From assembly GCF_003334385.1 (NCBI RefSeq), contig NZ_QOWN01000001.1: a stretch of DNA of 64,000 nucleotides. The stretch is one strand, 5' to 3'. Source of the stretch: Escherichia coli. GTDB taxonomy: Bacteria; Pseudomonadota; Gammaproteobacteria; Enterobacterales; Enterobacteriaceae. The first letter of the stretch is position 1. Each line of letters opens with the position of its first letter. Below the pieces are notes generated by a model that was not told where the DNA came from, made no database searches, and saw only the letters and a list, made by a program, of their open reading frames with translations. Below, one piece after another: positions 24,126 through 60,965 of the stretch. A program made the position numbers and the translations under genes.

Positions 24126-24164
24126 CAGTATTCAGGTAGCTGTTGAGCCTGGGGCGGTAGCGTG
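24126..24164 (+). promoter_or_regulatory. JUMPStart element with ops site GGCGGTAG (24153-24160) in the waaQ operon leader
   Basis: cagtattcaggtagctgttgagcctggggcggtagcgtg read from sequence about 50-85 bp upstream of waaQ; ops is the known RfaH recruitment site. Confidence 0.8.
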
Positions 24165-56176: not shown

Positions 56177-56195
56177 GCAGACGTTGCTTACTTTT
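56172..56195. terminator. 8-bp hairpin (agtaagca-gacgt-tgcttact) spanning the yibT and mtlR stop codons, followed on the plus strand by T-rich sequence
   Basis: Inverted repeat read from sequence; convergent gene ends. Confidence 0.5.
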
Positions 56196-56775
56196 GAAAG
56201 GCTTTTTTTAAGCTGATTTTGGAAATCAGCTCAGTCAGTGAAAGGACCATTGTTGATCGCACAGCCTGTTGATAGCGCTGAATTTGCATTGCATACAAAC
56301 TGGAGTCTGCTGGTTCAAACTGTGGCGGCGGTGGTAACGCCGCCACGCAGTGCAGTTCACCAAAGGGTCCAAGGATTTCGTCGTCGGTAAAGGCGTACTC
56401 GTTGCCGTCGTGATTTAGCTCTTCACGCAATGCCATCAGCAGTTCCGCATCTTCGTATTCCTGGCGGTTAATGACGCCCAACCCGTAAATGAGTTTTAAA
56501 CGCACAGAAAGATCGCCCAGCGGACCATCGCCGTCGAGTAACGGTTCTACAGCATACTTCACCGCGTAATCGTCTTTGCGGAATACCTGAAGCACCAGAA
56601 GATTTACCGCCTCGGTCAGGAGCTCGACGGCGGTGATCAGAAAGCTTCGCACGGTTTTGCCAGCATTCAGACGCTCAAGCACACGGTTTTCAAAGGCCTG
56701 GGTTTGTTCCATTGTTGCCTGCATATCTGACAATCTGTTATTCGGGCGCAGGGTGTCCTGCGCCTGGTCCACCAT
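56188..56775 (-). CDS. mtlR: Mannitol operon repressor
   Basis: 195 aa, [36 protein letters not shown]. Confidence 0.92.
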   Translation of the reverse strand: MVDQAQDTLRPNNRLSDMQATMEQTQAFENRVLERLNAGKTVRSFLITAVELLTEAVNLLVLQVFRKDDYAVKYAVEPLLDGDGPLGDLSVRLKLIYGLGVINRQEYEDAELLMALREELNHDGNEYAFTDDEILGPFGELHCVAALPPPPQFEPADSSLYAMQIQRYQQAVRSTMVLSLTELISKISLKKAFQK

Positions 56776-57923
56776 TATTGCATTGCTTTATAAGCGGTTA
56801 CCGCCTCGGATACAACCTCGCTGTTGGCATCAAGACCGGAAATCTGTGCCAGCGCCGCCTGCGGACCTTTGTCAGCGATCAGTGCTGCCAGTTCCTGAGC
56901 CTGCGGATCATCTTCACTGCGGAAGTGCATTGCAGCGGCAATACCTTCAATCAGGTTTTTATGTGGCAGACCATATTCCAGCGTACCGAGCAGTGGCTTG
57001 ATCAGACGGTCGCCAGCACTCAGTTTACGCAGTGGCTGACGGCCTACGCGCTCTACATCATCTTTCAGATACGGGTTCTCAAAACGGCCGAGAATTTTCT
57101 GGATGTACGCCGCATGCTTGTCAGCGTCAAAGCCGTAGCGCTTGATCAATACTGCACCACTTTCTTCCATCGCACCTTTTACCACCGCGCGGATTTTCTC
57201 GTCGAGAATCGCGTCACGAATGGTCTGATGACCGGCCAGTTTTCCGAGGTACGCGGTTATAGCATGACCCGTGTTCAGGGTGAAGAGTTTACGTTCGACA
57301 AATGCCATCAGGTTGTCGGTTAACTCCATGCCTGGGATGTTCGGCAGTGCGCCTTTGAACTGCGTTTTATCGACAATCCATTCGCTGAAGGTTTCTACCG
57401 TCACTTCCAGCGGATCGTTAGTTGCCGAAGCCGAAGGCGGTACGATGCGGTCAACGGCGGAATCGACAAAGCCAACGTGTTCTTCTACCCACGCTTTGGC
57501 GTCTTCCGGCAGGGCGTTCATCACATGGCCTTTCAGCTGCGTGGTACCGCGTACCATGTTTTCACAGGCGATGATGTTCAGCGGGGATTCATTACCTTGT
57601 TCTTTACGTTTCACCAGCCCTTTGGCGATTGCCGGAGCAATACGTTCCAGCACAACCGGGCCAACGGCGGTAGTGACTAAATCAACCTGAGCAATCAGAT
57701 CAACGACATCATCACCAATGCTGCTGACAGCATTGACGCCGGAAACGGTATCTACCTGCTCGGTTTCACCAACCACATGTACCTGATAGCTATGACGGGC
57801 ATTCAGGGCATCAAGTACCACCTGATTGACATCGGCAAACGTCAGTTGGATACCCGCGTCTGCCAGCAGTTTACCGATAAAGCCACGACCGATATTACCT
57901 GCGCCAAAATGTAATGCTTTCAT
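56775..57923 (-). CDS. mtlD: Mannitol-1-phosphate 5-dehydrogenase
   Basis: ORF track 56775..58241 (488 aa) over-extends through the upstream repeats; start at [24 protein letters not shown] gives 382 aa. Confidence 0.93.
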
Positions 57924-58152: not shown

Positions 58153-60066
58153 TTACTTACGACCTGCCAGCAGTTCCAGCACTTCATCCACGCTGGTGGT
58201 GTGTGCCAGACGCTCGATGACGGACTCATCATCCAGTGCATTGGTCAGGCTGGTGATAACCTGAATGTGCTCGTTGTTACGGGCAGCAATACCAATCACC
58301 AGACGGGCAATGTCATCTTCTTCTTCACCGAAGCGCACGCCTTCCGGGTACTGGCAGAACACGACGCCCGTTTTCAGTACGCGATCTTTCGCTTCAACCG
58401 TACCGTGTGGCACCGCGATAGACTCACCCAGATAAGTCGGGGTCAGTTTTTCACGATCCAGCATCGCCTGAACGTATTCCGGCTCAACGTAACCGCCTTT
58501 CACCAGCTGCTCGCCAGCAAAACGAATCGCTTCTTCTTTGGTTGCCGCTTTGCGACCGAGGAAGATGTTCTCCGCGCCTAGCTTGAACAGGTTAGCACTG
58601 GAATCGTCAAAGCTGTCTTTCAGGCTGTCTTTTACTTTCTCTTCGTTTGCCGTGTGGCGTTGGGCAGCAACCAGACGTTCGGTCAGGCTGGTGTACAGGC
58701 CGCTGTCGAGGAAGTTGGTCAGCGAAATATGCTGTGCCTGCGGAACCTGGCGCATAGCGCGTTCGGTCAGGTCACGGTGAGTGATGACGAGGTCCACATC
58801 TGGCGGCAGGTTGTTGATCGCGCTGTTAGTAACAGAAATCTGCGACAGACCTGCATCCTGAATTTTCTTACGCAGAACGCCTGCGCCCATCGCACTGGAA
58901 CCCATACCGGCGTCACAGGCAACGATGATTTTACGTACGTGGCTCAGGTCGTTAGTCACATCGCCAGCAGACAGCGGAGATGCGCCTTTAGACTCAGCTT
59001 TCATGTCCTGCATACGACGAGTTGCTGCTTCAATATCATCTTCTTCTTTCACTTTGCTGGTTTTCAGCAAAATAGCAGAGACAACGAAGGAGACAGCCAT
59101 CGCCGCACACACACCCGCGATGTTAGCGAAGTAAGCACCTTTTGGTGTCATCGCCAGTACAGCAAGGATAGAACCCGGAGACGCCGGAGAAACCAGACCA
59201 CCGCCCAGGATAGTCAGCGTGAACACGCCAGTCATACCGCCGAGGATGACTGCGAGGATCAGACGCGGATTCATCAGCACATACGGGAAGTAGATTTCGT
59301 GGATACCCCCCAGGAAGTGGATGATTGCCGCACCGCCCGCAGACTGTTTAGCGCTACCACGACCAAAGAACATGTACGCCAGCAGCACGCCCATACCTGG
59401 ACCTGGGTTAGCTTCAATCAGGAAGAAGATTGATTTACCCAGTTCATGGGACTGCTGAATACCCAGCGGCGAGAAGATACCGTGGTTAATGGCGTTGTTG
59501 AGGAACAGGATTTTCGCCGGTTCAACAAAGATAGACGCCAGCGGCAGCATGTCATGGACAACCATGAAGTTAACGCCCGCAGCCAGCATTTTGGACAGGG
59601 CTTCAACAATCGGGCCAATGCCGAGGAATGCCAGAATAGCGAGGATCATCCCGATGATGCCTGCGGAGAAGTTATTCACCAGCATCTCAAAACCGGATTT
59701 GATCTTACCGTCTACCCAGCGGTCGAAGTGCTTAATGCACCAGCCGCCCAGCGGACCTGCAATCATAGAACCGAGGAACATCGGCATGTCTGCGCCGACG
59801 ATAACGCCCATGGTGGTGATGGCACCGACTACGCCGCCACGTTCGCCGCCTACCAGCTTACCACCGGTATAACCGATCAGCAGCGGCAGGAGATAAGTGA
59901 TCATCGGCCCGACCAGCTTCGCCAGCGTCTCGTTCGGTAACCACCCTGTTGGAATAAATAACGCGGTGATGATACCCCACGCGATAAACGCGCCGATATT
60001 TGGCATCACCATGTTGCTGAGGAAACGACCAAAGCTTTGCACTTTGATCTTAATATCGGATGACAT
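58153..60066 (-). CDS. mtlA: PTS mannitol-specific EIICBA component
   Basis: 637 aa, [37 protein letters not shown]. Confidence 0.95.
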
Positions 60067-60209
60067 AAAAACACCCCTTCTTATGTTTGCTGTCGCGCAG
60101 GCTGGAAGCCCGAGGTTTTTTGTTAATGTGGCGGCAGAGGTAGCCGGACCTTGTAGATACTGCGAAATCTGGCACTGAATCGGTTAACTGTCCAGTCGAC
60201 GGCCTTTTG

Positions 60210-60386
60210 TGTGATATCAATCACATAAATATAGGGGGTAGAGAGGTAATTGACGTGACGTTCATCACAAAACGCTTGTGTAAAAAAGCAACAAGGCGGC
60301 GATTTTCGCTAAAAATGGCATTTAAATGTGAGTAGTGTCACATTTTTGTTTTGATGGTTTGTTGAATCTTTGTGATCTGAATCACA
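60210..60386. promoter_or_regulatory. mtlA regulatory region with four CRP-type palindromes: 60210-60225 (TGTGAtatcaaTCACA), 60254-60269 (cGTGAcgttcaTCACA), 60327-60342 (TGTGAgtagtgTCACA), 60371-60386 (TGTGAtctgaaTCACA)
   Basis: TGTGA-N6-TCACA palindromes read from sequence 150-320 bp upstream of the mtlA start; multiple CRP sites at mtlA are established. Confidence 0.75.
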
Positions 60387-60602
60387 AGATATTTTCTTAC
60401 GGCGTTCACCTGATGTGATCTACAGCATGTTATGCCTTCGTCATACAATCGTTATGTAACTAAGCAACTCATCACCTCTAAAAATTATTCTTTGGTGTTA
60501 TGGCGAGAATCGCGAACCCGGATTATTGTCAAAATATCAGCCTGACTCCCTTCTGGCTGCCAGCCCAAAAACAACACTGATAAACGTGAATCCGAGGCAG
60601 AT

Positions 60603-60965
60603 ATGTTTCTAAACTATTTCGCGTTGGGAGTGCTGATCTTCGTCTTTCTGGTGATTTTTTATGGAATCATCGCGATACATGACATCCCTTATCTGATTGC
60701 CAAAAAGCGCAACCATCCCCATGCCGACGCTATTCATACGGCGGGCTGGGTGAGCCTGTTTACTCTGCATGTTATCTGGCCGTTTCTGTGGATCTGGGCG
60801 ACGCTCTATCAACCGGAGCGTGGCTGGGGTATGCAGTCACATGTTGCGTCGCAGGAGAAAGCGACTGACCCGGAAATCGCCGCACTTTCTGACCGAATTT
60901 CCCGGCTGGAGCATCAACTCGCCGCCGAGAAAAAGACTGACTATTCCACGTTCCCGGAGATCTAA
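60603..60965 (+). CDS. yibI: Small inner membrane protein YibI (DUF3302-like), two predicted TM helices
   Basis: 120 aa, [40 protein letters not shown]; stop 2 nt before the yibH start. Confidence 0.85.

Follow-up and report, generated by a model that had tools for sequence, protein, structure and literature searches.

The window analysed here is the whole 64,000-nucleotide stretch of Escherichia coli DNA. The array of CRP sites under study lies within the 536-bp gap between mtlA, transcribed from the minus strand, and yibI, on the plus strand. The products of mtlA, mtlD and mtlR all exceed the NCBIfam curated cut-offs and the operon is intact downstream of the array. The flanking genes are:

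58153–60066, minus strand: mtlA, PTS mannitol transporter IICBA (NF011663, 1324 bits)
56775–57923, downstream of mtlA: mtlD (NF002648, 879 bits)
56188–56775, after mtlD: mtlR (NF008234, 256 bits)
60603 onward, plus strand: yibI-yibH, divergent from mtlA

The position of the mtlA transcription start site was obtained by arithmetic from published site positions, which are counted from an S1-mapped start. As the S1 mapping is old, all promoter-relative positions given below may be off by a few base pairs. The putative promoter elements were placed relative to this implied start:

60159, minus strand: implied mtlA transcription start site, with the ATG at 60066 following a leader of 93 nt
60189–60194, minus strand: putative -35 element, TGGACA
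60166–60171, minus strand: putative weak -10 element, CAGATT (3/6), 17 bp from the -35 element and ending 7 nt before the start site
60174–60187, plus strand: predicted Cra/FruR site, ACTGAATCGGTTAA, within the spacer between the -35 and -10 elements

We infer that TGGACA and CAGATT are the mtlA promoter elements, and both are moderately conserved across genera. A consensus promoter scan of the region did not call the mtlA promoter, as expected if that promoter is activator dependent. The predicted Cra/FruR site is an exact match to RSTGAAWCSNTHHW, the consensus of Ramseier et al. 1995. Three exact matches to this consensus are present in the window versus 0.61 expected, and the predicted site at 60174–60187 would fit the reported role of Cra as a repressor of the mtl operon. 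The further exact matches are at 47135–47148 (plus strand, GCTGAATCGATAAA) and 61432–61445 (plus strand, GGTGAATCCGTTCT), the latter falling within the yibH coding region. An Rfam scan of the mtlA-yibI intergenic region gave no RNA family; the sole Rfam match in the window above the gathering threshold was a JUMPstart RNA at 24126–24164 (plus strand, 55 bits).

CRP sites upstream of mtlA and the mapped operator

Candidate CRP sites were scored by counting matches (out of 10) to the core TGTGA-N6-TCACA and by window-wide shuffles, in place of a curated CRP weight matrix. When the canonical core is defined as two half-sites of 5 bp with exactly 6 bp between them, five sites stand upstream of mtlA:

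60210–60225: CRP5, promoter-proximal, core TGTGATATCAATCACA, 10/10, centre 60217.5 (-58.5 from the mtlA start site)
60254–60269: CRP4, core CGTGACGTTCATCACA, CGTGA-N6-TCACA, 9/10, centre 60261.5 (-102.5)
60327–60342: CRP3, core TGTGAGTAGTGTCACA, 10/10, centre 60334.5 (-175.5)
60371–60386: CRP2, core TGTGATCTGAATCACA, 10/10, centre 60378.5 (-219.5)
60414–60429: CRP1, weak, core TGTGATCTACAGCATG, TGTGA-N6-GCATG, 7/10, centre 60421.5 (-262.5)

The canonical class I position is -61.5, from which CRP5 departs by 3 bp. Centre-to-centre distances from CRP5 to CRP1 are 44, 73, 44 and 43 bp, which agrees with the remark in the sequence-only reading that the spacing suggests two pairs. That reading also described four perfect palindromes. 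The coordinates it gave are right but the count is not, because the core at 60254–60269 carries one mismatch, leaving three perfect sites plus one of 9/10. The weaker fifth site that it placed near 60414 is CRP1, and the longer palindrome that it saw around the third site is also present, since the CRP3 core sits within a 22-bp palindrome, AAATGTGAGTAGTGTCACATTT (AAATGTGA...TCACATTT), at 60324–60345. This palindrome matches 16 of the 22 positions of the 22-bp CRP consensus. Four perfect CRP2–5 sites do occur in Escherichia sp. ESNIH1 (locus L029) and Pseudescherichia vulneris (locus L034), in both of which the distances from CRP2–5 to the mtlA ATG equal those of E. coli.

The 64-kb window holds three exact matches to the core, CRP5, CRP3 and CRP2, and no others. 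Dinucleotide-preserving shuffles of the window gave a mean of 0.02 exact matches, with none of 100 shuffles reaching three. Allowing one mismatch gave four matches window-wide, all within a single 177-bp span. Three exact matches thus lie within 177 bp, compared with 0.02 expected per 64 kb. Could the cluster nevertheless have arisen by chance or from base composition, or belong to a repeat family with no part in regulation? Matches with up to two mismatches are not enriched across the window (16 observed versus 25 expected), as such an explanation would have it. The counts of exact and one-mismatch matches and their confinement to one short span argue against it, as do the conservation and the published binding data described below, and we consider it to have next to no chance of being correct.

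The sequence from 60060 to 60610 (551 bp) is 100% identical to that of E. coli K-12 MG1655, and of the 5426 complete E. coli genomes compared, 5405 contain a match to the region. The mtl CRP sites have been reported at -262.5, -219.5, -175.5, -102.5 and -58.5 from the S1-mapped start site, with centre-to-centre distances of 43, 44, 73 and 44 bp (Lee et al., NAR 2026, PMC13421365); these authors take the five positions from Ramseier & Saier 1995. The five centres in the window reproduce the published positions and spacings exactly, and the core counts of CRP1, CRP2 and CRP3 equal the published scores (7/10 for CRP1, 10/10 for CRP2 and CRP3; PMC13421365). By its identity to MG1655, its site positions and its place directly upstream of mtlA-mtlD-mtlR, the array is at the same locus as the K-12 mtlADR operator-promoter, with sequence, positions, spacings, core scores and operon all in agreement. 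The proposal from sequence that this is the multi-CRP mannitol promoter is thus upheld by comparison with the mapped sites, the whole array falling inside the mapped promoter.

Published binding data point to the same sites. A PhyloScan genome-wide Crp scan ranked this intergenic region first, showing that it scores highly in a motif search, and in genomic SELEX with cAMP-CRP the yibI-mtlA spacer made up the second most abundant clone set. The table of an ETEC CRP ChIP-seq study holds four of the five core sequences of the array, with TGTGATCTGAATCACA (CRP2) and TGTGATCTACAGCATG (CRP1) listed under a yibI peak and TGTGATTGATATCACA (CRP5) and TGTGATGAACGTCACG (CRP4) listed under an mtlA peak. 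Electrophoretic mobility shift assays on the identical sequence show binding of cAMP-CRP (PMC13421365).

Conservation of half-sites and spacing

A collection of species-representative genomes was scanned for two perfect cores 43–46 bp apart, which gave at least 120 loci. In 63 of the matches listed the mtlA start codon was found 90–430 bp away by tblastn, and seven more loci are homologous to those. Among the matches listed, all 70 loci that could be placed by record title or homology in Enterobacterales, Pasteurellaceae or Orbaceae lie upstream of mtlA. The other 50 of the matches listed belong to unrelated phyla or to unclassified gammaproteobacterial MAGs, and some are repeats. Tannerella MAG contigs (L045–L047) carry tandem arrays of 23-bp period with TGTGA-N6-TCACA in each unit, unrelated to mtl or CRP; further Tannerella MAG loci among the matches are L061, L063 and L080–L083.

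Adjacent CRP sites 43–44 bp apart upstream of mtlA have published precedent, and the present scan widens this pairing to 47 Enterobacterales operators and to Pasteurellaceae and Orbaceae among the matches listed. The 44/73/44 layout is found in 47 of 47 Enterobacterales operators (the window counted, among the matches listed), the CRP3-CRP4 distance being 73 bp in 45 of them, 72 bp in one and 74 bp in one. Outside Enterobacterales both the number of sites and their distance from the mtlA start codon differ: among the matches listed, Pasteurellaceae have either three perfect sites, spaced 40+44 or 41+43 bp, or a pair 43–44 bp apart, and Orbaceae have two sites 44 bp apart.

When the 47 Enterobacterales operators among the matches listed were aligned, the CRP2–5 half-sites were 0.83–1.0 identical to the window, compared with 0.27–0.49 for the inner 6 bp of the same sites and about 0.5 for the DNA between sites. 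Because the loci were chosen for one perfect pair, conservation of one pair is partly built in, although that of the other pair, the 73-bp gap and the two additional blocks described below is free of this selection. CRP2–5 therefore show selective constraint on the half-sites that does not extend to the inner 6 bp, whereas CRP1 is poorly conserved across genera (0.69/0.47 in the Enterobacterales operator alignment of the matches listed). The mismatched outer base of CRP4 is likewise unconserved across genera. The paired pattern does also occur in unrelated repeats outside CRP-bearing lineages, the Tannerella MAG tandem arrays being an example, as would be expected of a repeat family without regulatory function. 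At mtlA, however, cross-genus conservation is confined to the half-sites, the DNA around them having diverged, and this conservation pattern together with the binding data rules out a chance or repeat origin.

In the gap between CRP4 and CRP3 (60270–60326) the sequence diverges while the 73-bp length holds, and a moderately conserved T-run plus ACACA is seen at about 60277–60288. The fixed 73-bp distance suggests a helical-phase or length constraint acting between the CRP pairs.

An anchored, gap-free profile was built from 44 unique operators among the matches listed, with a conserved block defined as at least 1.4 bits over at least four consecutive positions. The blocks recovered were the eight half-sites of CRP2–5 plus two others, which flank CRP2:

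60358–60362, minus strand: ACAAA pentamer (TTTGT on the plus strand), lying between CRP2 and CRP3 and not itself a CRP half-site
60391–60394, minus strand: AAAT, 12.5–15.5 bp distal of the CRP2 centre, conserved like the half-sites

ACAAA is as conserved as the half-sites in 44–47 unique Enterobacterales operators among the matches listed and has a fixed register, 16.5–20.5 bp promoter-proximal of the CRP2 centre, with the rest of the spacer unconserved. AAAT may be an A/T flank that affects bending by CRP, or a piece of another site. ACAAA and AAAT were also considered as the -35 and -10 elements of a second sigma-70 promoter on either strand, but this was rejected since neither the hexamer matches nor the spacings suit such elements. 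The CRP spacers were reported to share no sequence similarity with one another (PMC13421365). It is possible, though we think it improbable, that a model based purely on spacing is incomplete and that ACAAA, AAAT and the invariant 73-bp gap mark an additional sequence-specific contact. Such a contact could be an alpha-CTD/UP-like docking site beside CRP2, a site for Fis or another nucleoid protein, or a bend-setting element. If so, an extra contact with rigid phasing might explain the essential role of the far-upstream CRP2 site in activation.

Within E. coli, alignment of the window with three divergent strains gave 14 variable positions in 60150–60450. The 50 half-site bases contain none of the 14 and the 30 inner bases contain six, with the other eight lying elsewhere. 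The polymorphisms thus concentrate in the inner 6 bp (60215–60220, 60259–60264 and 60332–60337), which hold 6 of 14 in 30 of the 301 bases, albeit in a small sample. In strain GPEC1054 (locus L125, NZ_CM142793.1) an IS21-family element (istA/istB, ISSso4-like) is inserted at about 60403, between CRP2 and CRP1. The insertion parts CRP1 from the rest of the operator, and thus CRP1 is out of its normal position. This fits the report that CRP1 is dispensable, is normally unoccupied and gives no mutant phenotype (PMC13421365).

The position of the sites between divergent genes raises the question of whether the array, especially CRP1 and CRP2, also or instead drives yibI-yibH and thus exerts bidirectional control. 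According to the SELEX paper, yibI and mtlA are both downstream of the CRP-binding sequence; the ETEC ChIP-seq table gives the CRP2/CRP1 peak to yibI, and the PhyloScan Crp scan has yibI among its top hits. These published yibI labels, however, are nearest-gene assignments rather than expression data. Moreover, the consensus promoter scan found no sigma-70-like plus-strand promoter between the sites and yibI, and CRP1 is about 181 bp from the yibI ATG. Only some twelve of the mtlA-linked loci showed an adjacent yibI homologue (some loci are short), whereas the four-site layout is present in all 47 Enterobacterales operators among the matches listed. Hence the array tracks mtlA and not yibI, because the layout persists where no adjacent yibI homologue was detected, and we regard control of yibI-yibH by these sites as an unlikely reading.

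Regulation by CRP and MtlR

The site identities rest on sequence identity, exact positions and the conservation of half-sites and spacing, whereas CRP binding, bridging by MtlR and the assignment of essential sites are taken from the literature. Together these make it almost certain that the array is the E. coli mtlADR operator-promoter, a class III CRP-dependent promoter having five cAMP-CRP sites whose spacing is recognised by MtlR. The hallmark of that class, multiple conserved CRP sites upstream of a weak -10 element, is seen here.

Chromosomal site mutants have shown that CRP2, CRP4 and CRP5 are indispensable to mtl expression, with CRP3 being partly required (PMC13421365). MtlR possesses no DNA-binding domain; it bridges a pair of CRP dimers bound 43–46 bp apart, with optimal binding at a CRP spacing of 44–45 bp (PMC13421365). 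In the window the adjacent pairs within this range are CRP5-CRP4 (44 bp), CRP3-CRP2 (44 bp) and CRP2-CRP1 (43 bp). The CRP3-CRP4 pair, at 73 bp, is not bound by MtlR unless shortened to 44 bp (PMC13421365). The two pairs perceived in the sequence-only reading are therefore functionally apt, since MtlR reads CRP pairs 43–46 bp apart. MtlR is modelled as covering the activating regions of CRP, and mutants altered at the interface no longer repress; EMSA, mutant, qRT-PCR and spacing experiments back the bridging of CRP by MtlR (PMC13421365). HPr and dephosphorylated EII-Mtl compete for one surface of MtlR (PMC13421365).

An older operator model would instead make the palindromes operators bound directly by MtlR rather than CRP sites. 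The dyad-symmetric repeats do lie upstream of a repressed operon, and proteins of the MtlR family are still labelled 'transcriptional regulator'. Against this, the palindrome is the canonical CRP core, and insertion of 10 bp into the unrelated malK operator, which brings the spacing to 44 bp, creates MtlR binding (PMC13421365). Direct MtlR operators are thus ruled out by published experiments, and we give this model very little credence.

With the array read as a set of CRP sites, activation of this promoter, whose -10 element is weak, requires cAMP-CRP at CRP5 (-58.5) as well as at the upstream sites CRP4, CRP2 and, less strongly, CRP3. The 43–44 bp spacing of the CRP4/CRP5 and CRP2/CRP3 pairs, and weakly that of CRP1/CRP2, provides the geometry recognised by the repressor MtlR. 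Upon transport of mannitol, dephosphorylated EII-Mtl (MtlA) sequesters MtlR at the membrane, which induces the operon. For activation from the far-upstream sites Lee et al. offer looping or anti-silencing, as hypotheses only (PMC13421365).

Several known systems resemble this arrangement in part. CytR belongs to the LacI family, binds DNA itself and recognises sequence between CRP sites, and in the CytR-CRP complexes of deoP2, cdd, udp and related promoters, as in mtl, a second protein contacts DNA-bound CRP at tandem sites and blocks activation. This anti-activation parallel was drawn by Lee et al. themselves; in contrast to CytR, MtlR has no domain for binding DNA and owes its specificity solely to the 43–46 bp spacing (PMC13421365). 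The malK control region (malEp-malKp) is likewise class III and has four CRP sites in one divergent control region, but its adjacent sites are 34 bp apart and MtlR is recruited only once that distance is lengthened to 44 bp (PMC13421365). The CRP site of the pap operon (-215), like CRP2 (-219.5), is required although beyond direct contact range and has been cited as a precedent (PMC13421365). The pap site differs in being a single distal site that acts with other factors, with neither a phased array nor a bridging repressor. Some Vibrio MtlR proteins have lost binding to the CRP pair.

The five-site CRP array upstream of mtlA is real, was correctly interpreted from sequence save for the number of perfect sites, and has been described in detail before. 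As a case of combinatorial control the locus is of textbook grade, no array of consensus CRP sites in E. coli is denser, and since 2026 it has been the model for a repressor that lacks a DNA-binding domain and reads the spacing of the sites of another factor. Its re-identification from raw sequence recovers a genuine regulatory architecture and adds nothing new to biology. Three observations go slightly further than the published work: a 44/73/44 layout that stays invariant from genus to genus, the pair of conserved blocks flanking CRP2, and the loss of CRP1 through an IS21 insertion in a natural strain. The invariant layout and the blocks beside CRP2 could help in testing looping and architectural hypotheses for activation from the upstream sites.
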